From NCBI GenBank assembly GCA_038046385.1, contig JBBSWH010000001.1:39382-103381 (forward strand): DNA of 64,000 nucleotides, written 5' to 3'. Position 1 is the stretch's first letter; every line of letters begins with the position of its first letter. The notes beneath the pieces are model-generated. The model had not been told where the DNA came from. It made no database searches and was given only the letters and a program-made list of their open reading frames with translations. Both the position numbers and the translations under genes were made by a program. This DNA comes from Nanobdellota archaeon (GTDB taxonomy: Archaea > Nanobdellota > Nanobdellia > Woesearchaeales > GW2011-AR4). Positions 2,219 through 47,035 of this stretch are shown here, piece by piece.

Positions 2219-2239
2219 GCTCAATTAACAAATGATTAA

Positions 2240-2350
2240 TGATAATGAATGGGCCTGACAGATGTGAACCAACCCTTTTGTGAGTTGACGACAAATATCA
2301 TGTGCCATTTTTAATGGCACGACCCGAATATGATAATGAATGGGCCTGAC
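2240..2350. mobile_element. Two-hairpin mini-insertion (71 bp) flanked by a 20-bp direct repeat duplicating the tRNA-Val 3' end
   Basis: tgataatgaatgggcctgac at 2240-2259 and 2331-2350; internal hairpin gtgccat/atggcac; core homologous to 4 other loci. Confidence 0.75.
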
Positions 2351-4904: not shown

Positions 4905-5023
4905 AGCCTCTGATGGGAATTGCACCCACGACCTTTGCCTTTTAGGCTAGCATATGGTACCAAGGCTTCGCGGATTAAAAGAATACTTCCAATCTAACGC
5001 AATGGCTACTATGCTACAGAGGC
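4905..5023 (-). tRNA. Intron-containing tRNA, isotype unresolved
   Basis: Acceptor GCCTCTG/CAGAGGC, T-arm GTGGG-TGCAATT-CCCAT, D-arm GCAT..TTGC. It is 119 nt, so ~45 nt are extra. Candidate anticodon loops read GGA or UGG, but I could not close the anticodon stem by hand. Confidence 0.55.
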
Positions 5024-5483: not shown

Positions 5484-7277
5484 ATGGTATTTTCAGTTCA
5501 GATAGGCTTAATTATATTGTTCTCTTTGGTAGGGAGCCTTCTCGCGTCAAGGTTCAGGCAGCCGACTGTTATAGGGCTGCTTATAGCAGGGGCAATCGTC
5601 GGGCCGCATGCCCTTGGGATTGTGAACGATCCCGAAATTGTCGAAAGCGCAATAGAGCTCGGGGCAATCCTGCTGCTGTTCACCATAGGAATAGAATTCA
5701 GCATAAAAAACATATTGAATCTGGGGGCGAGGGCTGTTTTGATAGGGGCAATAAAAATAAGCATCGTGCTTCTCCTTTCTTATTATGCTGCGCTTTTTAT
5801 GGGAGCGAGCGGCCTAGAGGCGATTTTTTTCGGAATAATCCTTTCAATAACGAGCACAGTCATAGTAATAAAAGTAATGGAGCAGAAAGGGCTTGCAAAA
5901 AAAGAGGAGCTTCCGCTTTTGATAACAATCCTCATCCTCGAGGACATTTTCGGTGTTTTTGCACTTGCATTTATTTCCGGGCTCAATACGCATGCAGACC
6001 TGAATCCGATAGGAATACTTACGAAACTTGCAGTATCCCTTGCCCTGCTGGTATTCACTTATCTTATTTTACAGAGATTAGCGGGGCGCGCTTTCAACTG
6101 GATTGCAAAATACAGCTCCGAAGACACTGCAACATTTACTTCACTGAGCCTTTGCGGAATAATGGCATATGTTGCAACGCTTCTTAGCCTGTCGCCTTCT
6201 GTGGGGGCTTTCCTTGCCGGCAACATAATAGCATCTTTTCCAAATTCAAAATCATTCGAGAAAGCAATACACCCTTTTCTTTTGACATTCACTTCCCTTT
6301 TCTTTTTTTCAGTAGGCACAGCGGTGAACTTTGCTTCAATAATCTTTGAATTTAGGCTCATACTTGTGCTGTTTGCGGTAAGCGTAATTGTGAAATTCAT
6401 CACCATAGGGGCCGGCAGCTACATCTTCACAAATTTCAACGGAAAGCAGGCGGCTTTTAGCGGAATTGCAATGATATCCATCGGGGAATTTTCGCTGCTG
6501 ATAGCAAAAGAGGCTAATGCTGTGGGAAGCAGCATGGATTTTGTCAGCATAACTGCCTCGATAATACTTCTTTCGACAATAACCATGTCTCTGATGATAA
6601 GCAATACCGGCAGCGTATACAGGCTGACAACACGGCTCATTCCAAAAAAGATGAGGGAGAACATGGATATAACTTCAAAATACATAAACAGCATATCTTG
6701 GGCGATGGTAAGGGACAGGGTCAACCTTGGAAAAATAAAATCCGAGTTCTATAAGATACTGAACAACATGACCTTCGTTTTCGTGTTCATAGCCCTGGTG
6801 CTTTTTTTATGGAGATACTTCCATGTTGCAATCAGCAGCCTGCTCAGGAATGACTATGCCACATATTTCACTGTTATTGCCATTGTAGCCATACTCTACA
6901 TACCGGTATCAAGAATAATAAAAAATGCAGCCCATTTAAACAAGGACCTCTTCCGGTTTTTTGTAAAGATATCCCCAAAGGAGCTTCAGTTTGATACAAA
7001 AATTTTCAGGAAGATAAGGATACTCTCCCTTTTGTTCATAGCCATGATAGTGTTTCCCCAGGTATTCCTTTTTTTCAGGATACCTGTCATCTACAATGCG
7101 CTGGTGGTATTAATCTTCTTAATAATAACATTCAATGCCCTGATGGCATCCAATATGATACACGATGTAGTGCACAAGCACGAGAAGGATTTTGGAAAAT
7201 CCGACAAGGGATATGTTGCCATACTGAAGAAAAAGATGAAGAAAGTCGAGAAGGAAAGGATATTCGAAGAGAATTAA
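5484..7277 (+). CDS. Cation:proton antiporter (CPA2/Kef-type Na+/H+ exchanger family) with C-terminal extension
   Basis: 597-aa ORF, about 13 TM, N-terminal ..VIGLLIAGAIVGPHALGIV.. pattern. Confidence 0.8.
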   Translation: MVFSVQIGLIILFSLVGSLLASRFRQPTVIGLLIAGAIVGPHALGIVNDPEIVESAIELGAILLLFTIGIEFSIKNILNLGARAVLIGAIKISIVLLLSYYAALFMGASGLEAIFFGIILSITSTVIVIKVMEQKGLAKKEELPLLITILILEDIFGVFALAFISGLNTHADLNPIGILTKLAVSLALLVFTYLILQRLAGRAFNWIAKYSSEDTATFTSLSLCGIMAYVATLLSLSPSVGAFLAGNIIASFPNSKSFEKAIHPFLLTFTSLFFFSVGTAVNFASIIFEFRLILVLFAVSVIVKFITIGAGSYIFTNFNGKQAAFSGIAMISIGEFSLLIAKEANAVGSSMDFVSITASIILLSTITMSLMISNTGSVYRLTTRLIPKKMRENMDITSKYINSISWAMVRDRVNLGKIKSEFYKILNNMTFVFVFIALVLFLWRYFHVAISSLLRNDYATYFTVIAIVAILYIPVSRIIKNAAHLNKDLFRFFVKISPKELQFDTKIFRKIRILSLLFIAMIVFPQVFLFFRIPVIYNALVVLIFLIITFNALMASNMIHDVVHKHEKDFGKSDKGYVAILKKKMKKVEKERIFEEN

Positions 7278-7292
7278 GGATTTTTCTGGTGG

Positions 7293-7414
7293 AATATAAA
7301 TGCGGGGAACTGATGCGCCCCAACCTTTTCTTATATAAGAAAAGCTTGACCAAAAGAAGTATGCTACGCAGTTGTGAGGTAAACCTCACTAAAGAAAATA
7401 TAATGCGGGGGAAG
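7293..7414. mobile_element. Two-hairpin mini-insertion plus relic 3' end of tRNA-Leu(UAA), the displaced original tRNA flank
   Basis: aatataaatgcgggg (7293-7307) vs aatataatgcgggg (7397-7410). The core 7316-7392 aligns along its length with the reverse complement of 40129-40214. tgcgggggaag (7404-7414) equals the last 11 nt of the tRNA at 16760-16770. Confidence 0.7.
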
Positions 7415-7493
7415 CACATTCCGCCCCTATTAGAATGCGTATCTTAAATTCCCTTTCTTATTTATATATCTTTTCATGTTACGTAGGGTGCTT

Positions 7494-7967
7494 TTAGTAT
7501 TTTTTGAGTATAGAGAGAATTTCTTCAACTTTTCTACTCCTCTCTAAAGAATCATTTTTTTGCTCTGGCAATAGATTTTGAAATATAACAATCATAGAAT
7601 TAGAAAGAATAAGCATATTGGAAAGGATAGTCTCCATTTCTTCAATGGTAGGGATATTTTTACGCATTAAGAAGAACCTCTTTTTATGTAAGTATTTGTA
7701 CTCTATATTCAGATGTGCCCAAATTTTTCTTAAGTTTTTTTGTATATCTATAACTTCTTTAAAAAATTCATTAGATATAACTTCTTTGATAAACATGTTT
7801 GTAAGTATACTTTTCCTAAACATTAGCTCTGTCTGTAACTTATTCAAACTTTCTTTAAATTTATAATATGGCTTAATCATAAACTGGTTAAGAAGCTCTC
7901 CAGTTATGTATACTACCACTCCCCCTATAATTGTTAGTGAAGCCGTTAAAAATTCTGATTCATACAT
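7494..7967 (-). CDS. Hypothetical protein, N-terminal TM plus helical domain
   Basis: 157-aa ORF in the integrated element. Confidence 0.5.
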   Translation of the reverse strand: MYESEFLTASLTIIGGVVVYITGELLNQFMIKPYYKFKESLNKLQTELMFRKSILTNMFIKEVISNEFFKEVIDIQKNLRKIWAHLNIEYKYLHKKRFFLMRKNIPTIEEMETILSNMLILSNSMIVIFQNLLPEQKNDSLERSRKVEEILSILKKY

Positions 7968-8032
7968 ATCTTAAAAAGTTACTAAGATTTATTAATAAGC
8001 TTTCCTCTAATTAGTGTCTTCTTAAGAATTAA

Positions 8033-8941
8033 TTATAGTTTTTTGTGTTCAAGTTGCCTGATACGATTTAAAATTTTTCCAACCTCTCGTGGCCGCATGA
8101 AAGCCATAAACAGTATAAATGGAATTATAATAAAAGTTGCCCACACAACTATGACATAAATCCAAGTATAAATAACTTCGAATATATTGTTAAATTTATC
8201 AACACTCTCAATAGTTACCGACATAACCAACCAGGTCATAATAAAAAATATGTTTGCTATGGTTATTTTATTTAAGAATCTCGAAACTCTTATTTTATGG
8301 TTCAAGTACTTAATATTGTTCCCCATATGCAAGAAGAGGTAAGCTCCCAAATAAAAGATAACTGATAAGCTAAATTTGAAACTAACTTTATCTGCTGAGT
8401 CTGCACCCCCATTTACTCTGAAAAATAGATTAATAACAGTTCCTAAAAATATGGCTAATGTAGTTAGAAATTCTAATTTAGACTTTAAATCCTTGACATC
8501 AACAGAGGCAACAACTCTTAGTACTTGAGTTTGTTGGACAGTGGTTTCTGGTTTTTCTTTTACAAAAAAAGCAACTACACTCAATAATAATCCCATCAAA
8601 ATGAACAAAAGCTCCAATTGTCTGTAGTATTTTACTTTTTCATTCAGATAAATATATTTATTAGTCAAAGGACCCATATTTTCTGCCAGATTTCTCGCTT
8701 TTAGGGCATAATTTGAGCTATTGATTAAGAATTTTGTATCGCTTTTATTCATGTAATAGATTAGAAAATTAAGGTCAGATTCCGAACTCCAAGAATTAAC
8801 AGCATCACGAACGTAATCTCTTGTAGTAACAAATTCTTCTGATGTGCTTTGATAGAAATCTCCAATGAAATGAAAAAATATCGATAAAGTAACAGCTATG
8901 GTAGAAAGTATAATTAAATTATTTTTTGTTAAGCTAACCAT
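8033..8941 (-). CDS. Hypothetical multi-pass membrane protein
   Basis: 302-aa ORF with several TM segments. Confidence 0.55.
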   Translation of the reverse strand: MVSLTKNNLIILSTIAVTLSIFFHFIGDFYQSTSEEFVTTRDYVRDAVNSWSSESDLNFLIYYMNKSDTKFLINSSNYALKARNLAENMGPLTNKYIYLNEKVKYYRQLELLFILMGLLLSVVAFFVKEKPETTVQQTQVLRVVASVDVKDLKSKLEFLTTLAIFLGTVINLFFRVNGGADSADKVSFKFSLSVIFYLGAYLFLHMGNNIKYLNHKIRVSRFLNKITIANIFFIMTWLVMSVTIESVDKFNNIFEVIYTWIYVIVVWATFIIIPFILFMAFMRPREVGKILNRIRQLEHKKL

Positions 8942-9147
8942 GATTTAACCACCTCACCACCCCTTAACTGTAGTAAATAAGGCTTGTTTTATTAATTTAT
9001 CCAAAAAATATATAAGAAAATAAGCACTGGACACCTATACGCAAAGTTTAAATACTTTTAAAATTAGGGTAGTATCAGGGTATTTCGGTATACGAAATAT
9101 CCAATTCAGTCTAAGTGGTGCGGTTTACGTAATCACTTAGACTTTTT

Positions 9148-9945
9148 TTAAAATCTGGGTTCTGGGAAAACTTTTACTTTAACTGATCCATCTATTACTA
9201 CGCTTCCTATTTCTAAAGTGCATATTGGCTTTAATATTTTTAAGTACCCTTCATTATAGCACTGTTTTTTTAAATTTGAACATAGGAAGCAGTAATAGGA
9301 TCTTTGAAAAGCATAGCAAATTAAATCAGCAATTTCATAAAATGATGACTTGGACATCGGTTCAATATTTAAATCTGCTAATATATTTGAAAAATCTTTT
9401 ACATATGTGGTTCCATTCTTCATTACATCTCGATGCACCCTTTTAATATTAGACGCTAATTTAGTTGAGCTATCACATAAATTTACAATCCCTAAAGAGT
9501 TTTTATTATCTCCTCTTCCCTTAATTATTTTTTGAAATTTCTCTAATACGAACTCGTAAGCTAAAAGATAAGGGTTTGCAGGATGTTTGTATTTTTTCCT
9601 TAGGTTATGATTATCAATAACTATAATTATTGGTTCAATAGGCATCTTTGCAATGAACTCATACAGTTTCAACATTATTTCTTTGCCTTGTTGATCGGTT
9701 AGATACCCCTTATACCTATTTCTGTTGTTCCTGGAGATATGATTTAACTCTACAGCATGGGCTGGAGTAGTTTTAAGCTCTTTAGGGAATAGTGACTCTT
9801 TAAATTCTTTGAAAATCCTACTTTGATTAAAATAATCTTCTTCTTTTATAATTAAACCACCTAAAACAAAGAAATCAGATTGCTCTCTTATGTTAGGGTT
9901 ATCAATACGTGAACTTCCCGATTCATCTAAGTATAAGAGATACAT
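9148..9945 (-). CDS. DUF3800-like protein
   Basis: N-terminus MYLLYLDESGS matches the DUF3800 hallmark (hydrophobic-x-DESG); 265 aa. Confidence 0.6.
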   Translation of the reverse strand: MYLLYLDESGSSRIDNPNIREQSDFFVLGGLIIKEEDYFNQSRIFKEFKESLFPKELKTTPAHAVELNHISRNNRNRYKGYLTDQQGKEIMLKLYEFIAKMPIEPIIIVIDNHNLRKKYKHPANPYLLAYEFVLEKFQKIIKGRGDNKNSLGIVNLCDSSTKLASNIKRVHRDVMKNGTTYVKDFSNILADLNIEPMSKSSFYEIADLICYAFQRSYYCFLCSNLKKQCYNEGYLKILKPICTLEIGSVVIDGSVKVKVFPEPRF

Positions 9946-10210
9946 TATATAGGAAATTTTTTTGGTATTTATAAAGAATACTGTGTTACGCCCCTTTAAT
10001 GAAGAGGTATATGCACGCTTATATTTAAAATATTTTATTTTTTAGGTTTAAATATAATAAAAATTAGGAAAAAGTTTTGGTTATAGGATAACGCCTCGGT
10101 TAAATATATTTGAAGGCCAACCATCCTCCGATTGCAAAAGCTATCAGGCCATAAGCAATAAGTCGAAGTATAAACCTTTTATCCATTCTTTTTGGGCTGT
10201 CGAGTTAGTA

Positions 10211-10609
10211 TTATCTATTAATTGAAAAAAAACTCTCACCTTTTTTATAATTTTTTACCCTTGTAAACTTTTTTGAGTTTGGATAAATTTTAGTAAATTG
10301 ACAATCATCTATATTATCTCCCTTAAATGATATAGTTATCTCATCATAACTGCTCGGATATGTCTTAATTGCAAACTTATGAGCTGTTTCAAGATTATCT
10401 AATGCTATATGAAAAAGCCACTCAATAACAGCTTTTCCCCCCCATTTTTCTTTGATATAATCTTCGTAATCTTTAGTATAGGAATGTCGTTCTATTCTAT
10501 GATTGTATTTTAGCCATTTTCGAGGTTCATCTATCCATTGATGAAGTTCTTGAAAAGTCTGTCCAGTTCTACACTCACTTACTTCCATATGAAATTTTAG
10601 AGACGGCAT
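10211..10609 (-). CDS. Hypothetical protein
   Basis: 132-aa ORF, SD ggagg upstream, His-rich N-terminal half (ELHQWIDEP..HRIERH). Confidence 0.5.
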   Translation of the reverse strand: MPSLKFHMEVSECRTGQTFQELHQWIDEPRKWLKYNHRIERHSYTKDYEDYIKEKWGGKAVIEWLFHIALDNLETAHKFAIKTYPSSYDEITISFKGDNIDDCQFTKIYPNSKKFTRVKNYKKGESFFSINR

Positions 10610-10756
10610 CTTTAATCCTCCTAAACATTTAATTTTTTGGGCTGAAAAAGTAAAAATGAAGGGATAGTTTTTCGTTAGAATAACTTACCTTACCTTTTCC
10701 AGCTTTCCAACATAAAACCATTATAAAACATATTATAAAAGCTTTGCGACATAAAA

Positions 10757-11002
10757 TTAAGGATAATCAATACAAGACTCAGTATTTTCATCAGTACATC
10801 TATTAAATCGTCTACATGCTAAAAACCAGCCTTTGAAGAACCCATATTTCTTAAGTGCCAATATTGCATGATTTGAGCATGAAGGATAAAACCTACAAAT
10901 TATGTTTCTTTTTTTATTAAAATTTCTACCAATTTTCCCGTGCCATACTTTCTTTATAAAAAATATTGATATTAAAATCAAGAGATTATTTTTTCTTCTC
11001 AT
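10757..11002 (-). CDS. yidD: YidD-like membrane protein insertion efficiency factor
   Basis: CRFYPSCSNHAILALKKYGFFKGWFLACRRFNRC matches the YidD CRF-P-(T/S)CS...G...R..RC pattern. Confidence 0.65.
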   Translation of the reverse strand: MRRKNNLLILISIFFIKKVWHGKIGRNFNKKRNIICRFYPSCSNHAILALKKYGFFKGWFLACRRFNRCTDENTESCIDYP

Positions 11003-11294
11003 ATATACTCACTTCTTCAGTGTAATTCTGTGAACCACATTCTGGACATCTTCGTAAATTATCAAGTGAATCTTTAGATGCACCTACATTTCTTTGAGCT
11101 TGTAGAGCTGCACCAGAATTACAACAACACGCATTAGACATTTGGTTTAAAGCAGCAACACCTTTAGCACTTTCAATTTCTTTTTCTCTTTCTGATAAAG
11201 AATGCCACACCTTACCACATTCATTACATTTTCGTTTAAACTCTTTTACGTGCTTGTTCTTATCAAAATCCGCTTCCGAAATCTTTTTGCTCAT
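10986..11294 (-). CDS. Zinc-ribbon protein
   Basis: CNECG ... CPECG cysteine pairs; 102 aa. Confidence 0.55.
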   Translation of the reverse strand: MSKKISEADFDKNKHVKEFKRKCNECGKVWHSLSEREKEIESAKGVAALNQMSNACCCNSGAALQAQRNVGASKDSLDNLRRCPECGSQNYTEEVSIYEKKK

Positions 11295-11318
11295 TTTTCT
11301 AAAGATTATTTAAATATT

Positions 11319-11849
11319 TCAACACATACCATTGGTAAAACTTATCAGTTCTTTGGCATCAGCAGTGTATAGATATATATCTTTGCAAGATTTCATTAAT
11401 TCTAACCTGACGACTGGGATACCACCATCACATTCTTTTGTTTTGGATAGGCACTTATAATAGGCTTGATCTTTTGTTAAAACTTTTGGAGCTTTTGAGG
11501 TTTCATTAACCTTTTGCTGTGGCATGAAGTTAGAAATGAGAATCATAGCAGCTATAACTATAATGCCCCACAAAAAGAATTTTTTATAGTTTGGGTTTTT
11601 CTTATCTATTAAATTTGTTTTACTTACGCTAACATTTTTATTAATTTTATGTTCTCTTGACTTAAAATTCAATTTCTCTTTAAAGAACTTTCGTGATGGT
11701 GGAAGTATCACAAGTCCTATTGCGAGTGAGGTAGTTCCAACAATAAAAGATGAATCTGAAAAATTTCCTAAAGAAGCCAAAATAAAGATAATCCCAAAAA
11801 TCCAGCTAAAAACTCCTCCTAAAGTAATTTTTTTAACATCTTCTACCAT
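11319..11849 (-). CDS. Membrane protein
   Basis: 176-aa ORF with 3 TM and a Cys-containing C-terminal domain. Confidence 0.5.
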   Translation of the reverse strand: MVEDVKKITLGGVFSWIFGIIFILASLGNFSDSSFIVGTTSLAIGLVILPPSRKFFKEKLNFKSREHKINKNVSVSKTNLIDKKNPNYKKFFLWGIIVIAAMILISNFMPQQKVNETSKAPKVLTKDQAYYKCLSKTKECDGGIPVVRLELMKSCKDIYLYTADAKELISFTNGMC

Positions 11850-11881
11850 TAACTTACCACCACACTTCTATATCCATTTTT

Positions 11882-12556
11882 CTACGTTGACCTTAAGTTA
11901 ATATTAAATATATCGTTAATCTCACTATTGGAAGCAACAACTATTTTCAAGTCTTCAAGGTTTTCTGGAATATCAAACAAAACAAAACCTCTTTTTTTAA
12001 TGCCTGGGTTTATAGCATCACCAAACCCTGAAAATAAGGTAAAACTCTCTCCATTGTAAGTTCCAGTAGCATCATTATCACTAAGAAACTCCCTTCCTTG
12101 AATATCCTCTAATTTCATTAAAGTATTATCAAACTTAGCTGCCTTTTTAGCTAAATTTTCAACTTCTACTTCTATAATTAAATAAGTGCCGTCGGCTACT
12201 TGCATGCCACTAAACATTCCACCAGAAAAAGATTTTAGTTCTTTATTGCTTAAAAATGTCCACTTAAAATCTCCGGCCACTATTTCATCTTTAAAATTGT
12301 ACGTTACATTTCCAAAGAATTTTTTCTTACAATCTATAATATTGCTTACAATAGTAGATTCATCAGGGCAGACATATTGTATTTTTTCCACAATCTCAGT
12401 TTTAATTTCAACCTTTGGTGGACAAGAATTACAATCAAGCTCTTGGCACTTTGTAGAAGGACAGGCAGTTTCTTTGCATTCTGGACACTGAGGAACTGCT
12501 TGAGTACAAGCAGTAATAAACAACAATCCTATCAACAATAAAGCATAAACTTTCAA
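11882..12556 (-). CDS. Lipoprotein with Cys-rich linker and DUF4352-like beta-sandwich domain
   Basis: Signal plus lipobox FITAC; CPECKETACPSTKCQELDCNSCPP; C-terminal ..GTYLIIEVEVENLAKKA.. pattern. Confidence 0.6.
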   Translation of the reverse strand: MKVYALLLIGLLFITACTQAVPQCPECKETACPSTKCQELDCNSCPPKVEIKTEIVEKIQYVCPDESTIVSNIIDCKKKFFGNVTYNFKDEIVAGDFKWTFLSNKELKSFSGGMFSGMQVADGTYLIIEVEVENLAKKAAKFDNTLMKLEDIQGREFLSDNDATGTYNGESFTLFSGFGDAINPGIKKRGFVLFDIPENLEDLKIVVASNSEINDIFNINLRST

Positions 12557-12618
12557 ATTAAATACCCCCTAATAGATAATTTTTGAAGATGGCTTTAAAT
12601 AATTTTCTATCCTCTTAA

Positions 12619-12663
12619 TATTACGCTGATTATCACGCTTTCTTTTATTCTGATTATTACGCT
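12619..12663. promoter_or_regulatory. Direct-repeat operator candidate upstream of the wHTH gene
   Basis: ctgattatcacgct (12626-12639) and ctgattattacgct (12650-12663), plus attacgct at 12619-12626. Confidence 0.4.
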
Positions 12664-12671
12664 ATAGATAT

Positions 12672-12926
12672 ATGGATGACGAGTTAAAAATATTCTTAGC
12701 AAGAAGCAAGCTTAGAAGTAAGATTTTACAAGAGTTAGAAGAAAAGCCTCAAATAGCTTCTTTTTTGGCAAAAAAGATTAAAAAGCATAGAGAAGTTATA
12801 AGCAGGGTATTTTTGGATTTACAGAGAAAAAAGTTAGCTGTATGCACAAATTCAAAAGATTCAAGCTTTAGGTATTACAAAATAACAGAGCAAGGCAAAA
12901 AGGCACTTAAAGAGTTAAGAGTTTGA
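12672..12926 (+). CDS. Winged-helix transcriptional regulator (ArsR/TrmB-like)
   Basis: 84 aa; ..RSKILQELEEKPQIASFLAKKIKKHREVISRVFLDLQRKKL.. Confidence 0.6.
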   Translation: MDDELKIFLARSKLRSKILQELEEKPQIASFLAKKIKKHREVISRVFLDLQRKKLAVCTNSKDSSFRYYKITEQGKKALKELRV

Positions 12927-13093
12927 ATTTTCAAAATCTGACAAAAATTTCTGACAAGCGGTAGCTTTACCATATAAGAGATAAAAAATTCTACCCCCAC
13001 CCCCTATATGAAGTAATACTACTTCTATATTCTACATCCTATATAAGTCAGCACAGAAGTATTTATATAGTAGGCTTACTTTATTTATGAAAT

Positions 13094-13291
13094 ATGGAAG
13101 AACTAAAAGGAAAGAAAGTTAAGATTGTAACACTCAATTACTTCGAGACTAAGCAGAATGGGTTAATCAAAAGGCAGTACAGGGTTAGTATTGCTCCTAA
13201 GATTATAGAAAGCTTAGAACTGAAGGCTCACGATAAGCTCAAAGTATGGGTTAACAAGGCAAAGAAGCAGATTAGAATGACAAAATTATAA
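13094..13291 (+). CDS. AbrB/SpoVT-like small DNA-binding protein (tentative)
   Basis: 65 aa; RVSIAPKIIESLELKAHDKLKV resembles the AbrB/MazE swapped-hairpin motif. Confidence 0.45.
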   Translation: MEELKGKKVKIVTLNYFETKQNGLIKRQYRVSIAPKIIESLELKAHDKLKVWVNKAKKQIRMTKL

Positions 13292-13334
13292 TCATAAGAC
13301 TGCTGGCATAGACCAGCAGCTTGGAGTAAACAAA

Positions 13335-13496
13335 ATGGCTTGCGACCAATTAGATACTCCACAGGAAGCAGTTCCTGTGGCTATTAAAAACCTTTCTGGA
13401 CAAGAAAAGGTATTCAAAGACCAAAAGGCTCAGGATAGATTTGAGTACCTTGTAAGAACAAGGAATAAGGTTTGGGCAATTGTAAAATTCAAATAG
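13335..13496 (+). CDS. Small hypothetical protein (53 aa)
   Basis: Manual ORF MACDQLDTPQEAVPVAIKNLSGQEK...; below the track cutoff. Confidence 0.3.
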   Translation: MACDQLDTPQEAVPVAIKNLSGQEKVFKDQKAQDRFEYLVRTRNKVWAIVKFK

Positions 13497-13779
13497 AATT
13501 TTTTTTATTTTTCTTTTTATCCGATTCTTTTGTAAAATATGTTAGTAACTGTCCCATCATTGAATTTGGACTTATTCTTAGGGCGAGGCTTTCTAATGGG
13601 TATTTTTGGGCATTTAATGAAGATTTAAACTTTCCAATGTCTGATTTTGGGCCAGAGCTTCTTTCTCTTGAAATTTGAGCAAGCAGTTCTTTCCAATTTG
13701 AAGTTCGTTCTCTCCACTTCCTTCCTTCTGCTGCTATCTCAGGATTACCCTTTGGATTATTCCACCTTTTACCTATCAT
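13489..13779 (-). CDS. Hypothetical protein
   Basis: 96-aa ORF; competes with an antisense 68-aa ORF. Confidence 0.35.
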   Translation of the reverse strand: MIGKRWNNPKGNPEIAAEGRKWRERTSNWKELLAQISRERSSGPKSDIGKFKSSLNAQKYPLESLALRISPNSMMGQLLTYFTKESDKKKNKKNSI

Positions 13780-14057
13780 TTTTTGGTTTTGGAAGATAGT
13801 TCGTTTGGTTATTATCGATAAGTTATGAATATAAGTATTATAATCATTCTTCCTTCTTCAATAGGGCTATTATTTTTCGGTTTAGGGCTTCAAGTTGGTT
13901 AAGTTTATACCTTACCCAATCCTCAAAGTTTAACCCTTCTTCTTTTTCTTCCATTTTATAAATAATATAATTATTATATTATTGAGATGTATACTATGTA
14001 CTACGTACTGAACGTGAGATAGTGTCAAATAACATTGATGTTATGATAATATCCATA

Positions 14058-14462
14058 TTATTGTTCATGTAGTTTTGGTTTAACTTTATTCAATAAATAT
14101 TCAAATTCTTCATCTGAAAGGTCTTTTCCAAAGTTTTCGTAAAACCCTTGTTTTTGACCTTCAAAGAATTTTCTGTCTCTCTCAATAGCCTGTAGAGCGT
14201 TCTTCAAATATGGAATCCAATTTGAGTTAAGTTCTACTTTGATTTCTTCTATGCGACTTCTGCCTTTTAGTTTCTCTAATTCTTCACTCTCTTCTCTCAG
14301 TTCTTGCTGTCTTTTTTCTATTTCCTTATCAGTAAACAAATTGCTATCAATCAGTTTTCTGATATATTGAGATCTGTCCTTGCCAAGAATATTCATTCTG
14401 GCTATCTGCTCTGGTGTTAGCGTTATGCTGACATTAACAAATCTTGAGTGGTATTGTTTCAT
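14058..14462 (-). CDS. Ribbon-helix-helix (CopG-like) protein with coiled-coil tail
   Basis: VSITLTPEQIARMNILGKDRSQYIRKLID RHH pattern. Confidence 0.6.
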   Translation of the reverse strand: MKQYHSRFVNVSITLTPEQIARMNILGKDRSQYIRKLIDSNLFTDKEIEKRQQELREESEELEKLKGRSRIEEIKVELNSNWIPYLKNALQAIERDRKFFEGQKQGFYENFGKDLSDEEFEYLLNKVKPKLHEQ

Positions 14463-14655
14463 TTTTCTCCAGTTTTTTACGAATAAGTGAGCTTAAGTCT
14501 ATGCCGAGTTGTAAAGCCTCATGTTTTAATTGCAGTAACCTATCGGCTTCTAAACGAAAAGCTAAAAATTCTGTCTTCTTTTGGATATGATTGGATTTTT
14601 TCTCAAAGCCAGGGTGATAGTATTGTTTTTGCATAGTTATCACTACGTTATACAT
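14434..14655 (-). CDS. RHH-like small protein
   Basis: LAFRLEADRLLQLKHEALQLGIDLSSLIRKKLE. Confidence 0.5.
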   Translation of the reverse strand: MYNVVITMQKQYYHPGFEKKSNHIQKKTEFLAFRLEADRLLQLKHEALQLGIDLSSLIRKKLEKNETIPLKIC

Positions 14656-14780
14656 ACCTTTTTATTTCAGAATTAGCTACCCTTTATTGCTTAGGTTTGG
14701 AAGCTAATTCCTTACTTAATTCTTGCTCTGCCTCCTCTGTCAAGGAGGCTATTCTTTTAATTATATTATTATAAACTAAG

Positions 14781-14921
14781 TTAGGATTTTTCATTTTCTT
14801 TTACTGCCATTTGAATTAGTTGAAAAACAAGGTTGCTAACTGACCTACCATCTTTTTTTGCTTTATTTTTTATCTTTTCAGCAAGTTCATCTGAAATAAT
14901 AGTTTGGAGTTTTTTACTCAT
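14781..14921 (-). CDS. RHH (CopG-like) small protein, 46 aa
   Basis: Manual ORF MSKKLQTIISDELAEKIKNKAKKDGRSVSNLVFQLIQMAVKENEKS. Confidence 0.45.
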   Translation of the reverse strand: MSKKLQTIISDELAEKIKNKAKKDGRSVSNLVFQLIQMAVKENEKS

Positions 14922-15010
14922 GCTAATCGAAATGAGTATAGTGGATTAATATATAAAGAGTGATTCAATGGCAAGTTATTTGTAACACTTCGCACAAGTG
15001 CTATATTTTT

Positions 15011-15406
15011 CTAACCGGTTAGAAACCGGTTTCCACTTTTTGAAAAGTATGGGAAAGATGGAACGCGAAATCGATTTCGCAAATTGAAGCAATATGGCAA
15101 AAACTCAAATGCCAACCGGTTGGCGAACCTAAAACAATATGGTAGGGTGGGACCTGAGCATTTGACAAACCGGTTTGTCAAATTGCAACCGGTTGCAAAA
15201 TTTGAAGAAATATGGGGATGGGACTGAAAATCGATTTTCAAGATTGAAACAATACGGAATTAGGTTGCTTATAATATCTCTTTTGGTGCCGATTTTCTGG
15301 AAATCGATTTCCACTTCCAAAAATTGTTTTCGCTTTTGTCGAATCGATTCGACAAAACCAAGTAAAAATGTCAAACCGGTTTGCCATTTTGTCAAATCGA
15401 TTTTAC
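15011..15406. repeat. Array of 11 short palindromes (AAAYCGRTTT cores) interleaved with 5 TTGAARNAATATGG motifs
   Basis: Perfect palindromes at 15011-22, 15022-33, 15065-80, 15111-24, 15163-80, 15183-98, 15225-40, 15299-312, 15337-54 and 15372-83; one imperfect at 15391-406. Confidence 0.85.
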
Positions 15407-15428
15407 ATTTACTAAATATCTAAATAAA

Positions 15429-16703
15429 CTAATTCTTTAATTCCTTAATCTCCTTCTGTAGTTCTGAAACTATCTTAAACAACTTTTGTACCTCTGGGAT
15501 CTGCATAAAATTATCATATTTTTGCATTTGATCTTGTATCTTTGTTCTATCTAAGGGCCTCTTGCAGTTGTTGCACGTTTCAGAAGTAAACCCATTTTTT
15601 ACATTACAGAATAAGCAGTCTTTGATTTTTGGCTGCAATTCCTTATATTTTTCATCCTGAACTAATCCTCTTTTTACCAGCTCAATCTTAAAGGATTCAT
15701 CATGCTGGCTTAAATCATAAGTTTTGAGCTGTTTGTTAGACGTCCATCTTGCAGCGTGCTGTATTTCTAAATCACTATCCCCTCTTAATCTCCGGAAAGT
15801 TACTCCATTTCGCTTTAGGGAATAAGCAGTCACGGGCTTTTCTATTCCAAGATATTTACAGGCTGTATGTATCTTGTTGTTGATGTTTTTAGGCTTAAAT
15901 TGTTGCCCAAATTCTCTGTCACTCAAATTGACGAATAGAAAGGCATCTTTATTCTTCTTAAGCGGATGTTGCTCTAACCATTTTATAAGATAAGGATAGC
16001 TATCTATACATTGCAAAAATCCTGTTCCTTCTTTTCCATGCTCAGAAATCCATATCTTAGCATAGTTATCATAAAGCTCGACATCTTTTACTTTTGTGTA
16101 AAGAATTTCTTGTGGTCTTCCTAAACTTTCCAATGACAAAGTTAGATAAAACTGCATCCTTGGATCATTAGAAAAGAAACTAACTACTTTTTCAAACTCT
16201 TCAAACGTAACCTTATCACCCCTCCTTTTTTCTTTGCTTTTGTCAATTTTAGGGCTTAAATGCCTAACGGGATATGGCACAAGTGTATCGTCAATTCTTT
16301 CTCTTTCATCCTTTTCAGGAAAAAGCACCTTCCACATATGCTTTAGGTCTCTTATGAAATCAGATTTGCTCTTTGGAGACTTATAGGAAGTATGCATAAA
16401 AGATACAATGCTGTTGACATCCTCTCTTTCCAAATCCTTTAAGTCCTTGTCAGTTGAATTGCAAATAAGCCTCATACTCATAAGAAGCCGATTTCGCCTA
16501 ACATAGCTAAGATCTTTAGCTTCAAAAACTTTGAATAGCTGCTCGAAATAGACTAAATTATCCTTATTCTTGCAGTAGTACTTACCTCTCTTAGTTACTT
16601 CCTGCCTTTCTTCAGGCTTTACAACAAATTGATCCAGGTTTTTCTTAAATCTCCCGTAAATCCTTTCATTATGGTATATATCGTCTTCTGCCATGGCTAT
16701 CAT
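15429..16703 (-). CDS. Tyrosine recombinase/integrase with C-terminal zinc ribbon
   Basis: 424 aa; HAARWTS...LKTYD (HxxR...Y catalytic box); CLFCN..CNNC; lies directly downstream of the tRNA-Leu 3' end. Confidence 0.8.
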   Translation of the reverse strand: MIAMAEDDIYHNERIYGRFKKNLDQFVVKPEERQEVTKRGKYYCKNKDNLVYFEQLFKVFEAKDLSYVRRNRLLMSMRLICNSTDKDLKDLEREDVNSIVSFMHTSYKSPKSKSDFIRDLKHMWKVLFPEKDERERIDDTLVPYPVRHLSPKIDKSKEKRRGDKVTFEEFEKVVSFFSNDPRMQFYLTLSLESLGRPQEILYTKVKDVELYDNYAKIWISEHGKEGTGFLQCIDSYPYLIKWLEQHPLKKNKDAFLFVNLSDREFGQQFKPKNINNKIHTACKYLGIEKPVTAYSLKRNGVTFRRLRGDSDLEIQHAARWTSNKQLKTYDLSQHDESFKIELVKRGLVQDEKYKELQPKIKDCLFCNVKNGFTSETCNNCKRPLDRTKIQDQMQKYDNFMQIPEVQKLFKIVSELQKEIKELKN

Positions 16704-16759
16704 TCTCCTGCTTCCGACTTATATACTCTTGTTAAACAACGCATTCATTTAGAAAATAG

Positions 16760-16878
16760 GTGCGGGGGAAGGGATTCGAACCCCCGAATCCACTAAGGAA
16801 CAGGATAGCTTATCTCGCTTACAGCGCGAGTGTTCCATCTTAAGTCCTGCGCGTTTGGCCAGGCTTCGCTACCCCCGC
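16760..16878 (-). tRNA. tRNA-Leu(UAA), class II, ~32-nt intron in the anticodon loop
   Basis: GCGGGGG/CCCCCGC+A acceptor, CAGGA-CTTAAGA..[intron]..TCCTG, long variable arm, GGGGG-TTCGAAT-CCCTT. Confidence 0.8.
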
Positions 16879-20540: not shown

Positions 20541-20687
20541 AACAGTACAACAAAAACCTGCATGTCAGAAATCATAAAGTCCATAATAATAGTTTTGATT
20601 TCTGAGCATGATCAAAAACACTTTTAGCACTTATTAGGGTGTTTTTGACATAATCTTTATAAAGCGAATAAAATACTTTTATTTCAT

Positions 20688-20835
20688 CCCCGCGTAGCTT
20701 AACGGCGGAGCGCTCGGCTGTGAGACTTTAAAGTCTGGCTAGAGATGCGCTCTAAGACCTTACGCTATTCTAGCGAGGAATGATAGAGAGCCAGTCGTGC
20801 CCGGGAGGTTGCTGGTTCAACTCCGGCCGCGGGGA
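20688..20835 (+). tRNA. tRNA-His(GUG), tentative, with ~75-nt intron at the canonical 37/38 position
   Basis: CCCCGCG/CGCGGGG+A acceptor, D-arm GCTT..GAGC, CTCGG-CTGTGA[intron]C-CCGGG, GCTGG-TTCAACT-CCGGC; no encoded G-1. Confidence 0.7.
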
Positions 20836-20933
20836 TTTTGGGTTAGCGTCATTGCTAACCCTATATTTTTCTATTAAATACCACTGGACATCTCCGCCTA
20901 AGATATTTAAAGCAAAACATCTTAATTCTCATT

Positions 20934-21557
20934 ATGAAAACAAAAATATTGAAATATGGTTTTAAGAAACTAACAAAAGCTAAATCCAGAATCATTGCAC
21001 ATTTGATAGGAGACGGCTGTGTTTACAAAAGCAATCATGATTATAACATTAAATATGAAGTAAAAGATCAAGAATCTTTAGATTCTTTTGAAGAAGATTT
21101 GATTTCCGTTTATGGCTTAAAATTAACTAAAGGATTTAAAAATTCCGGATTTACTGGCAAGCCCATCCCTTTTATAAGATTAAGATCAAAACTGGCTTAT
21201 GAGGACTTATTGCGCTACGCAACCTATAATTCAAGAGATTGGAAAATTAATTCAATAATTCCCCCTTCATCTAAAACAATAAAAAAAGAATTTCTCAAGG
21301 CATTGTTTGATGACGAAGGAAGTGTAATAATAAAAAGCAAAAATAGCGAAGTCAGGCTCTATTCAATAAATTTGGACGGCTTAACACAAATACAAAAAAT
21401 ACTGCTGGATTTTGGTATTAACACAAAGATAACTCCAGGATACGGCTTGAAAAGGAATGTGTATGCCGTAATAATTAAGGATTTAATGGCATTTAGGAAA
21501 AAGATAGGATTCAATTTAAGGAGAAAACAAGACAAACTTGATACCTTAAAATTCTAA
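20934..21557 (+). CDS. LAGLIDADG homing endonuclease, free-standing
   Basis: IAHLIGDGCV and LKALFDDEGSV double LAGLIDADG motifs; 207 aa. Confidence 0.8.
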   Translation: MKTKILKYGFKKLTKAKSRIIAHLIGDGCVYKSNHDYNIKYEVKDQESLDSFEEDLISVYGLKLTKGFKNSGFTGKPIPFIRLRSKLAYEDLLRYATYNSRDWKINSIIPPSSKTIKKEFLKALFDDEGSVIIKSKNSEVRLYSINLDGLTQIQKILLDFGINTKITPGYGLKRNVYAVIIKDLMAFRKKIGFNLRRKQDKLDTLKF

Positions 21558-39352: not shown

Positions 39353-39643
39353 ATGATGGAACAAGCAAGACCGTTGGACGCATTGAACAAGGCAAGGGAC
39401 AAGAGAGTAATCCTTGAGCTGAAGAACAACAAGCAGTACATCGGGAAATTAAAGTCATTTGACATTCACGTTAACGTTGTGATTGAAGATGTTGAAGAGT
39501 ACGAAATAAAATTCAAAAAAATATCTAAAAAAATCGATGAAAACACAACTGAAGAGTTTACAACAACAGAAACATTGCTAAGGAGAAAGCTTGGCTCAGT
39601 TTTTATAAGGGGAGACACAATAACAGTTATTTCAACAGAATAA
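39353..39643 (+). CDS. Sm-like archaeal protein (SmAP) with internal insertion
   Basis: PLDALNKARDKRVILELKNNKQYIGKLKSFDIHVNVVIEDVEE ... LGSVFIRGDTITVIS. Confidence 0.8.
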   Translation: MMEQARPLDALNKARDKRVILELKNNKQYIGKLKSFDIHVNVVIEDVEEYEIKFKKISKKIDENTTEEFTTTETLLRRKLGSVFIRGDTITVISTE

Positions 39644-39659
39644 AATTTCTAGGTGCTTA

Positions 39660-39771
39660 AATGAAAGGAACGCATTCAACTTTTTGCAAAAAACTTGACC
39701 AAAAGCATGAAAGTGCTATATTTGCTTCGCAAAATAGCACGAGAGGGCTACAATGAAAGGAACGCATTCAA
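39660..39771. mobile_element. Two-hairpin mini-insertion flanked by a 20-bp direct repeat duplicating the rpl37e start
   Basis: aatgaaaggaacgcattcaa at 39660-39679 and 39752-39771; the 72-bp insert has hairpins ctttttgcaaaaag and gtgctat..tttgcttcgcaaa..atagcac. Confidence 0.8.
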
Positions 39772-39932
39772 TGGGGAAGAAGTCCGGCAGCAAGAACATG
39801 ATATACTGCAGGCGCTGCGGGAAAAGAACTTTCAACCTTGGGGCAAAATGGAGATGCGCTTCATGCGGATTCGGCATGAGCAAGAAGCTTCGCGGTTACA
39901 AATGGCAGAAGAAGCCAAAGAAGATTTCTTAG
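39753..39932 (+). CDS. rpl37e: 50S ribosomal protein L37e
   Basis: Manual frame MKGTHSMGKKSGSKNMIYCRRCGKRTFNLGAKWRCASCGFGMSKKLRGYKWQKKPKKIS (C4 zinc ribbon); the track ORF 39695-39955 is out of frame. Confidence 0.85.
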   Translation: MKGTHSMGKKSGSKNMIYCRRCGKRTFNLGAKWRCASCGFGMSKKLRGYKWQKKPKKIS

Positions 39933-39986
39933 AAAGTTTTCAGCAACCTTTTTAAAGCAAGTTTATATCTTATTTTTTACATTCAT

Positions 39987-40118
39987 GCGGAGGTGCCGGA
40001 GTGGCCAAACGGGATAGGCTTAGGCGAGGCATCTTTTTGGTGTAAAGAGCCGAAAGGCAATGACTTTGAGACACCTATTAGCTTAGTGCTTACGCAGGTT
40101 CGAATCCTGTCCTCCGCA
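39987..40118 (+). tRNA. tRNA-Leu(UAG), class II, ~45-nt anticodon-loop intron
   Basis: GCGGAGG/CCTCCGC+A, ATAGG-CTTAGG[intron]A-CCTAT, long variable arm, GCAGG-TTCGAAT-CCTGT. Confidence 0.75.
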
Positions 40119-40231
40119 TTCATTTTCATTAGTGGATTCACAATCCACGACTGCGTAGCATGGTTTCTTTGGTCAAGCTTTCTTTTTATAAAGAAAGGTT
40201 GGTGGGAACCCTTACTCCGCATTCATTTTCA
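40112..40231. mobile_element. Two-hairpin mini-insertion flanked by a 17-bp direct repeat duplicating the tRNA-Leu(UAG) 3' end
   Basis: ctccgcattcattttca at 40112-40128 and 40215-40231; hairpins gtggatt/aatccac and ctttctttttataaagaaag. Confidence 0.75.
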
Positions 40232-40294
40232 AATGCATAAATTTTATAAATAACCATATTTTCACAAACAAAATATGGAGAAGGGTGCAACAAA

Positions 40295-40513
40295 ATGGCA
40301 AGAGAAAAAGTAAAAAAACTAAGCGTAAAGAAAGAGAGATATCTTAAATTCAGGAAGGAAAAGCCTCCGATGACCTTCACAGTGCCTGATCTTACAGAAC
40401 AGCAGGTTGCAGAAAGAAGGGTAGATGAGCAGCACATCGGACAGTTTTGGAAAGGCTACAGAAGGCCGCCTGAAAGGTTCGTAAGCGAAAGAAAAGCAAA
40501 AAGCAAGCGATAA
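40295..40513 (+). CDS. Hypothetical basic protein
   Basis: 72-aa ORF. Confidence 0.45.
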   Translation: MAREKVKKLSVKKERYLKFRKEKPPMTFTVPDLTEQQVAERRVDEQHIGQFWKGYRRPPERFVSERKAKSKR

Positions 40514-46850: not shown

Positions 46851-46938
46851 GGGCCCATAGCTCAGCCTGCTTAGAGCACAAGACTCTTAAGAATTTGGAG
46901 TTATCTTGGGGTCAGGGGTTGAAATCCCCTTGGGCCCA
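46851..46938 (+). tRNA. tRNA-Lys(CUU) with ~13-nt anticodon-loop intron
   Basis: GGGCCCA/TGGGCCC+A, GCTC..GAGC, CAAGA-CTCTTAA[intron]-TCTTG, AGGGG-TTGAAAT-CCCCT. Confidence 0.75.
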
Positions 46939-47035
46939 CTTATTTTTCTATCCGTGCAATAAAATTGCACTTGATTCCGCACTCAACTGACGGAACAGTT
47001 GGTTCGACATCCCCTTGGGCCCACTTTATTTTTCT
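46924..47035. mobile_element. Two-hairpin mini-insertion flanked by a ~26-bp direct repeat duplicating the tRNA-Lys 3' end
   Basis: atccccttgggcccactt(t)atttttct at 46924-46949 and 47009-47035; hairpins gtgcaat/attgcac and caactg/cagttg. Confidence 0.8.

Follow-up and report, generated by a model that had tools for sequence, protein, structure and literature searches.

The gene encoding the ribosomal protein L37e (rpl37e) in this Woesearchaeota (DPANN) archaeon carries on its first six codons what is probably a small non-coding mobile insert, whose Shine-Dalgarno (SD) motif and upstream open reading frame (uORF) would both serve L37e and whose mobility would be of the integrase type. In the window, by which we mean the whole 64-kb stretch of DNA that was analysed (GC content 37%), the 20-mer AATGAAAGGAACGCATTCAA is present in exactly two copies, and two matches were obtained in none of 100 shuffled sequences. 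An earlier note, made from the letters of this DNA, had described a 20-nt direct repeat flanking a 72-nt insert and a 31-codon uORF whose stop overlaps the start of an intact L37e gene as ATGA; the former is an exact match in the sequence and the latter is borne out by the ORF coordinates. The comparison of species shows that this insert, hereafter insert B, has been gained or lost at the level of the DNA. No further copy of its 72 nt was found in the 64-kb window by BLAST.

The gene directly upstream encodes an Sm/LSm protein and probably shares one transcript with rpl37e. This protein has 96 aa in the window compared with 75 aa in relatives, owing to an additional 63 nt in frame. The first copy of the repeat is continuous with the native upstream sequence known from the sister species, and the uORF that now starts in it reads MKGTHSTFCKKLDQKHESAIFASQNSTRGLQ. 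The coordinates of these features, and of the related elements discussed below, are collected in Table 1.

Table 1. Features of the Sm-rpl37e junction, of the five repeat-flanked inserts (copies A to E) and of the integrase element, in positions of the window
Feature	Position	Strand	Remarks
Copy A	2239-2350	-	70-nt insert; exact 21-nt repeats 2239-59/2330-50; 3' end of an unannotated tRNA; hairpin 2302-2320
Copy E	7293-7413	-	87-nt insert (7396-7310); imperfect repeats (tRNA-Leu(TAA) 3' end + trailer); adjoins attR of the integrase element
Integrated element, ~9.4 kb	7404-16770	-	attL, tRNA-Leu(TAA) 3' end; attR, displaced copy of that end
Tyrosine integrase gene	15429-16703	 	PF00589; immediately after tRNA-Leu(TAA)
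Sm/LSm gene	39353-39643	+	96 aa; directly 5' of the rpl37e locus; ORF list, PF01423
Native SD-like AGGTG	39651-39655	+	5 nt 5' of the displaced original ATG; typical SD context for the genome
Repeat copy 1	39660-39679	+	Displaced native start, ATG + 5 codons (MKGTHS), now the uORF start
Copy B (both repeats)	39660-79/39752-71	+	20-nt repeats at the L37e start
uORF	39661-39756	+	31 codons; TGA 39754-56 overlaps the L37e ATG at 39753 (ATGA)
Insert B	39680-39751	+	72 nt; C/E subfamily of mini-inserts, inverted relative to copies C and E
Palindrome TTTTTGCAAAAA + T5 tract	39681-39692	+	Counterpart of the AT-rich second hairpin in copies C and E
12-bp hairpin GTGCTAT-A-TTTGC/TTC/GCAAA-ATAGCAC	39713-39740	+	Nearly invariant in orthologs
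SD-like GAGG of insert B	39743-39746	+	6 nt 5' of the L37e ATG
Repeat copy 2	39752-39771	+	Functional start region of rpl37e
rpl37e, intact	39753-39932	+	59 aa; ORF list, PF01907
Copy C	40112-40231	+	86-nt insert; exact 17-nt repeats 40112-28/40215-31; tRNA-Leu(TAG) 3' end + trailer; hairpin 40132-40148
Copy D	46916-47032	+	After the tRNA-Lys(CTT) 3' end; repeats 46916-47/47001-32, 18 nt exact within 32 nt at 84%; hairpin 46954-46970

The arrangement can be explained if the insert either duplicated about 20 nt of its target or carried its own copy of those ~20 nt. The downstream copy is still a complete gene, preceded by an insert that terminates with a 12-bp hairpin followed by an SD-like motif able to serve the L37e ATG, while the displaced native SD and ATG open a uORF running through the insert and closing on the L37e start codon (ATGA). 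Two routes to L37e are predicted: direct initiation at the SD of the insert, and a second one in which ribosomes coming from the old site would melt the hairpin, terminate at ATGA and reinitiate on L37e. From sequence comparison we infer translation of the uORF, a share for coupling in L37e expression and the mechanism of mobility. The arrangement would persist because the essential gene stays expressed.

The sister species (contigs L002-L007, with 85-95% identity to the window in conserved genes) encodes an L37e protein which is 100% identical to that of the window, and its locus reads ...TAGGCGCTTAAAATGAAAGGAACTCACTCGATGGGG without the insert. The junction in this species is TAA-AATTTCTAGGCGCTTAA-AATGAAAGGAACTCACTCGATGGGG, with nothing between. 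This empty site bears out the prediction that deleting 92 nt, one repeat plus the insert, restores the arrangement of the relatives. The comparison of Sm-rpl37e intergenic regions that had been proposed along with it was extended to other relatives, most of which are without the insert and have a usual Sm-L37e gap of 11-45 nt. The sequence of the empty-site junction is GGTGCTTAAATGAAAGGAACGCATTCAATGGGG, and GGGCTAC-AATGAAAGGAACGCATTCAA-CTTTTTGC would be the junction specific to an excised circle or a tandem copy.

When GTDB genomes and metagenomes were scanned, the same insert was found at the same position of rpl37e in five more Woesearchaeota species (L031/L097, L096, L033/L098, L043 and L019). 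The carriers are scattered on a neighbour-joining tree built from S8e, Hjc, Sm and L37e (424 aligned columns), each of them beside a non-carrier (window/L004, L043/L045 and L019/L021). Three carriers have perfect flanking repeats, namely the window (20/20), L031 (21/21) and L096 (19/19), and in each of these both copies carry the same species-specific synonymous variants; the repeats are imperfect in L033 (2 mismatches), L019 (2) and L043 (4). In L045, which is ~97% identical to L043, the site is empty and its sequence agrees with the upstream copy of L043, whereas the L043 copy joined to the gene body differs from this empty site at 4-5 synonymous sites. A non-native downstream copy of this kind is the pattern to be expected if the insert brought its own version of the gene start, by att-type recombination or recombination with foreign DNA, and it is a pattern that one would not expect from local duplication followed by decay. 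Together with the scattered carriers it suggests that insert B was acquired horizontally or recurrently.

Between species insert B is 73-97% identical, against ~48% for synonymous third positions in the L37e gene beside it (small counts). This conservation might reflect a recent horizontal spread instead of function.

The spacing from ATG to ATG in the six species is 92, 92, 92, 98, 149 and 134 nt, in every case 2 mod 3, and the uORF (31, 31, 31, 31, 50 and 45 codons, respectively) is open throughout. The indels of +6, +57 and +42 nt all preserve the frame and the 35 added codons contain no in-frame stop; the chance that the frame is kept and the extra codons are open, taken jointly, is ~0.003, which is a rough estimate from only three indel events. 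Every length change presumably kept the frame because a frame overrunning the L37e start would occlude it. The uORF and rpl37e are co-directional, and stop and start overlap as ATGA (39753-56 in the window) in five of the six species, the uORF of L033 ending 2 nt 5' of the L37e ATG. Termination-reinitiation coupling at ATGA is established in archaea (PMC6728339, PMC10666635). The L37e locus resembles those coupled pairs in its co-directional ORFs, the 4-nt overlap, the good upstream SD and the retention of the overlap or a 2-nt gap in relatives. It differs from them in that the upstream partner is no gene but a frame of 31-50 codons deriving from a mobile insert, with an unconserved peptide, and in that the coupling is predicted.

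SD-like 4-mers are present 5' of 34% of the window ORFs compared with 6.7% of random positions, and the usual form in the window is (G)AGGTG, then 5-7 nt, then ATG. An SD-like motif follows the hairpin of the insert, being GAGG in the window and GAGGTGG, AAGGTGG or GAGGTTG in four species; L033 has none there and shows no recognisable SD at either start. Of the six species, it is the window that combines the strongest SD at the first start with the weakest at the second. The SD of the L37e ATG had been called weak, which is right in so far as GAGG is weaker than AGGTG; however, the start is not SD-poor, with GAGG 6 nt upstream and the longer motifs in the orthologs. Likewise, the idea that L37e depends on termination-reinitiation gains comparative support from the 2 mod 3 spacing and the open uORF, but "depends" is too strong because the insert brings an SD-like motif in five of the six species. 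Coupling is plausible but not the sole way in which L37e could be initiated, and it could be dispensable given the insert's own SD.

An insert that is a neutral scar, with L37e translated solely from the SD of the insert and an incidental uORF without function, would account for part of these data, and we regard it as unlikely though deserving of consideration. Five of the six species have the insert-borne motif 5-7 nt 5' of the L37e ATG, as such a scar would need, but the first start has the stronger SD (AGGTG vs GAGG) and ribosomes should therefore load there. The variable sites of the uORF are spread evenly over codon positions 1, 2 and 3 (5/7/4), which rules out selection at the level of the peptide and would suit an incidental frame. 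The TGA in the +1 frame is moreover automatic from ATGAAA, and the three 92-nt orthologs are so similar that their open frames are not independent observations. The three indels are independent of each other, nevertheless, and a frame without function would hardly be expected to survive all of them with 35 extra codons open, nor the insert to be conserved far above the synonymous sites.

The hairpin is kept in all six species and two of its pairs show compensatory changes in the consensus fold; L019 has a shortened version, GTGCCAT...ATGGCAC. When the whole region was folded as RNA the result was no better than for shuffled sequence (z = -0.41), the hairpin alone being supported. This near invariance could indicate that the insert has been domesticated as a regulatory leader, in which the hairpin would be a putative binding site (for instance of L37e itself) and would tune L37e synthesis together with the uORF. 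Such a leader is improbable in our judgement. The position of the hairpin directly 5' of the SD, with a weak 3-bp extension into the SD in the consensus fold, and the conservation of the insert well above the synonymous sites are what regulation would predict, but the same type of hairpin is found in family members beside tRNA genes, where this role is inapplicable, and an identical 29-nt hairpin occurs in another context in L099. Moreover most related species do without the insert, and no Rfam family was matched: the Rfam 15 covariance models gave nothing meaningful for 39600-40300, 2150-2520 and 7250-7520 (E up to 5).

Introns with a bulge-helix-bulge (BHB) motif are known in tRNAs and in some cbf5 mRNAs. 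As the tRNA genes of this host are rich in introns, and as excision anywhere equivalent in the repeat restores the ancestral mRNA exactly, the 92 nt could be imagined to be spliced from the mRNA in this manner, leaving a single start. A scanner for the canonical hBHBh' geometry was applied to all 92-nt excisions with p = 39650 to 39685. It placed each of the window's four real tRNA introns exactly as annotated (scores 11, 12, 7 and 9), while the best score in the L37e insert was 6, with pairing possible at only 2 of the 4 central-helix positions. The high score at site D is explained by the GGGCCC in its repeat, which is self-complementary. The removal of the insert from the RNA, which the earlier note had offered as one way out for the gene, finds no BHB motif at any 92-nt excision and is very improbable; the folding of the region, no better than that of shuffles, and the downstream copy, already a complete gene, also speak against it, and in L043, L019 and L033 the repeats have decayed and yet the uORF is open.

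Two other devices were looked for. Programmed bypassing of the kind known as gene 60/byp-like is not indicated, with no stop after the sixth codon, a frame open for 25 codons more and a last repeat codon that is unlike between the copies in L043 and L033 (TCA vs TCT). An internal promoter is not indicated by a conserved TATA box, the TATATTT of the window hairpin being TACATTT or TGCATTT in the orthologs.

Although the window derives from a metagenome-assembled genome, an assembly or scaffolding artefact, which had been named as the finding that would undo the duplication, is barely conceivable because the same block is found in independent assemblies (identical in at least nine contigs from differing samples and assemblers, among them the NCBI MAG GCA_964360275.1, ENA Hainich assemblies and Logan assemblies ERR3858127-9, SRR32696696 and SRR32696700) and homologous insert-bearing alleles are present in five further species.

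Returning to the mobile insert, a direct-repeat search found five short-range repeat-flanked inserts in the 64-kb window (copies A to E), with a spacing from start to start of 85-104 nt. Each of them has a GTG...CAC hairpin, and the four such hairpins of the window with a stem of at least 7 bp all lie inside inserts. Copies C and E share 82% identity (57 nt, E = 1e-9), and B aligns to both of them as its reverse complement through the hairpin, TGCGTAC/G, CTTTTGGTCAAG and the AT-rich palindrome. This alignment and the shared hairpin place B in a family of mini-insertions, as had been suspected, with B in inverted orientation with respect to rpl37e. Copies A and D are alike, and a further match, on opposite strands, links A to the L019 version of B (E = 0.006). 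Searched against 1.2 Mb of Woesearchaeota DNA, an nhmmer model of C, E and B recovered only these copies and the B orthologs. The sister species has none of the five inserts, its site being cleanly empty in each case, and an ortholog of copy D is present in L021. B also proved to be the sole protein-gene target of the family in the window, a tRNA 3' end or a tRNA-derived att copy being the site of each of the other four.

Two candidate sources of the inserts were rejected. Copies C and E look like tRNA-Leu by eye (TGCGTAG, TTTGGTCAAG), but global alignment of the insert body against shuffles gave p = 0.07-0.15. As to a viral origin, the scans of IMG/VR gave a single chance match, within the coding sequence of a GC-rich, unrelated contig (L104).

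An integrated element of ~9.4 kb with a tyrosine integrase gene is present in the same window, at the tRNA-Leu(TAA) gene. The tRNA 3' end CTTCCCCCGCA recurs at 7414-7404, which is the displaced att copy, and the interior consists mostly of ORFans. In the sister species the ~9.4-kb element is absent and the tRNA abuts the gene of a Na/H exchanger directly; the contig with this exchanger was reached through P0121, which is in the same protein cluster as the exchanger ortholog. Copy E lies in tandem with the integrase element and is flanked by the displaced att copy and by a third one, and in L082 two inserts are found in tandem at a tRNA-Leu. In L030 and L036, tRNA-Leu(TAG), which is where copy C is located in the window, is directly followed by a homologous integrase (71% and 52% identity). 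Copies C and E therefore occupy tRNA-Leu sites used by this integrase family, and no integrase is linked to the L37e, tRNA-Lys or site-A targets.

Recombination of att sites by an integrase would fit the mobility of the inserts better than a transposase, because inverted repeats are absent, the insert ends are degenerate copies of the target, the L043 copy is non-native, the occupied sites are scattered and the absence of inserts is precise. Concerning the first point, terminal inverted repeats were looked for and not found: of 18 terminal positions, nine elements had 3-6 that matched and copy C had 10. Concerning the second, beyond the exact repeat the end of the insert is a degenerate copy of the sequence adjacent to the target, giving T-arm-like ends. 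Copies A-E all have direct repeats which copy the end of the target gene, together with an empty site in relatives, as is the rule for att-flanked elements.

The repeats of A, B and C measure 17-21 nt and include the host-specific trailer, compared with an 11-nt core in the neighbouring integrase element, and look more like a target-site duplication than like such an att core. In a simple att model one integrase would need to serve five distinct targets. The 10-mer TGAATGCGTT is common to the antisense of the L37e repeat and to the arm of the integrase element beside attL; a second independent exact copy is expected ~0.1 times by chance and the 10-mer is not retained in the orthologs, and it serves as a lead only. 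Copies C, E and B were also considered as deletion derivatives of the 9.4-kb element and rejected, their local alignments to its ends not being significant (p = 0.06-0.9).

Integrative elements that target gene ends carry the replacement for what they displace, as with the tRNA 3' ends in attP or the e14/phage 21-type integration into icd. The inserts resemble them in having repeats that cover the end of the target gene, an intact gene, a degenerate adjacent copy, a non-native copy in L043 and scattered occupancy. They differ in being non-coding and only 53-125 nt long, in that the repeats include the host trailer and in that B targets the 5' end of a protein gene. CIMEs are att-flanked elements of several kilobases that are devoid of an integrase and lie in tandem with autonomous integrative elements. 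Copy E, in tandem with the 9.4-kb integrase element and with a common att copy, the tandem inserts of L082, and the placing of copies C and E at tRNA-Leu sites of this integrase family are comparable to these; CIMEs, however, reach kilobases in length, and neither C nor E is significantly similar to the integrase element at its ends (p = 0.06-0.19).

MITEs, or miniature inverted-repeat transposable elements, are similar to the inserts in being small, non-coding, multi-copy and structured and in having empty sites in relatives. The inserts are however without inverted terminal repeats, have long and variable duplications and prefer the ends of RNA genes. The short target-site duplication of fixed length that characterises MITEs and DDE-type transposition was not found, the exact repeats being 21, 20, 17, 18 and 16 nt with degenerate extensions.

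Casposons and mini-casposons are inserted by Cas1, with duplications of 14-35 bp that overlap the tRNA 3' end by the T-loop, tRNA-Leu targets and tandem arrays (PMC5137440, PMC4779613). A target duplication over the tRNA 3' end with the T-loop segment upstream, as described for casposons (PMC5137440), was found in copies A, C and D and in inserts of L021, L073 and L082. The likeness thus extends to the duplications at tRNA 3' ends beside the T-loop, the tRNA-Leu targets, the tandem arrays and the length of the duplications. It ends at the terminal inverted repeats, which the inserts do not have, and at the repeat length, which varies from 16 to 21 nt within one genome. No cas1 gene was found among the window ORFs that were scanned or that had precomputed annotation.

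The L37e case combines known kinds, namely the insertion of a mobile element with target duplication and an ATGA-coupled uORF. More tentatively, the inserts may represent a class of integrative mini-elements of Woesearchaeota that has not been described before. These would be non-coding, hairpin-bearing elements of ~55-125 bp, found at gene ends (tRNA 3' ends, a small-RNA gene and the 5' end of rpl37e), that spare the genes by duplicating or replacing 16-21 nt, are lost precisely, move between species and are possibly mobilised in trans by the tyrosine integrase of tRNA-Leu; the rpl37e copy would have been shaped or retained to supply an SD and a uORF. Through the spurious ORFs and duplicated tRNA ends that they create, such inserts mislead programs for gene calling and tRNA detection.

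An essential and universal ribosomal protein gene can tolerate a mobile insert right on its start codon. The gene would be kept working by the duplication of the target, by the SD supplied with the insert and by the uORF closing on the real start, and the arrangement recurs in several DPANN species. It exposes a family of tiny structured inserts at gene ends, which are cleanly present or absent between sister species and are conserved above the neighbouring synonymous sites. If they are mobilised by an integrase, they would be the smallest integrative elements known to us and would provide a means of tracing gene flow among uncultured DPANN archaea.

Intervening sequences are a regular feature of the tRNA genes of the window. 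ARAGORN in its default mode reported 0 tRNAs over the whole window, and with introns allowed it reported four, of which four carry introns (13-76 nt). Rfam missed the tRNA-Leu(TAG) and added one tRNA beyond these four (4905-5023, minus strand), which is probably intron-bearing too because it is 119 nt long. A further, unannotated tRNA gene was missed by ARAGORN; it probably contains at least one non-canonical intron, and its ortholog in the sister species, the relative with an identical L37e protein, has a still longer intervening sequence. In the sister species, a LAGLIDADG ORF is located at a different place, adjoining the Na/H exchanger gene.

Coordinates of tRNA genes, mobile-element features and repeats (L-handles are contigs of other assemblies)
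Feature	Position	Strand	Remarks
Unannotated tRNA gene, GGGCCTG...GTCAGGCCCA	about 2341-2460	minus	Rfam 25.9 bits only
Integrated element, ~9.4 kb	7404-16770	minus	tyrosine integrase present; CTTCCCCCGCA copies as boundaries
Tyrosine integrase gene of this element	15429-16703
tRNA-Leu(TAA)	16759-16878		~9.4 kb element directly after
tRNA-His	20687-20836		76-nt intron
LAGLIDADG-domain ORF (PF14528)	20934-21557		~100 nt downstream of tRNA-His
TGAATGCGTT in both L37e repeat copies	39669-39678 / 39761-39770	minus
tRNA-Lys(CTT) loci	window 46851-46939; L021 14444-14520; L102 13643-13732
Hairpin-rich repeat, TTTTACGCGCCCGTAAAACAG... / GTGCGGTACTTTGTACCGCAC	L044 6830-6990; L067 4560-4720 and 9450-9640

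The interior of the integrase element consists mostly of ORFans, and the sister species lacks the element altogether. The 10-mer TGAATGCGTT occurs both in the element arm adjoining attL, its boundary on the tRNA-Leu(TAA) side (16738-16747, minus strand), and on the antisense strand of the 20-nt repeat that flanks the insert at the rpl37e start. A second independent copy is expected about 0.1 times by chance, and the 10-mer is not kept in the orthologs of the L37e insert. The match may be a coincidence or a clue to a pseudo-att site.

In L082 (12837-13052) the tRNA-Leu(TAG) 3' end TTACTCGCCACATT is present in three copies, at 12837, 12946 and 13039, which makes two tandem mini-inserts at a single site. 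A 29-nt hairpin identical to that of the L37e insert lies in a different context in L099 (465-640), flanked by two imperfect copies of ATGATGAGGTTATTCGACCGCAA; it stands at the 5' end of an apparent C/D-box sRNA gene. After this, at 763-825, comes a C/D sRNA of canonical appearance, in which C, D', C' and D boxes can be recognised. A different hairpin-rich repeat is recurrent in other Woesearchaeota, and in L044 and the second L067 copy it is placed just upstream of the Sm gene.

At 96 aa, the Sm/LSm protein of the window (gene 39353-39643) is longer than its counterparts in the relatives that were compared (the sister species, L031, L033 and L043), which have 74-75 aa. The extra length comes from 63 nt of in-frame, low-complexity sequence added in a loop, within 39500-39565 (EEYEIKFKKISKKIDENTTEEFTTTETLLRRKLG in the window versus EERMNGEVTRKLG in the relatives), with no repeat flanking it and no likeness to the insert family.

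The G19:C56 tertiary pair of tRNA is near-universal. The tRNA-Lys(CTT) of the window has GCCTGCTTA as D-loop and TTGAAAT as T-loop, and judging from these loops the pair has apparently been exchanged for C19:G56. The sister-species gene is canonical, with GG in the D-loop and TTCGAAT as T-loop; the variant loops are also found in L021, from a distant species.
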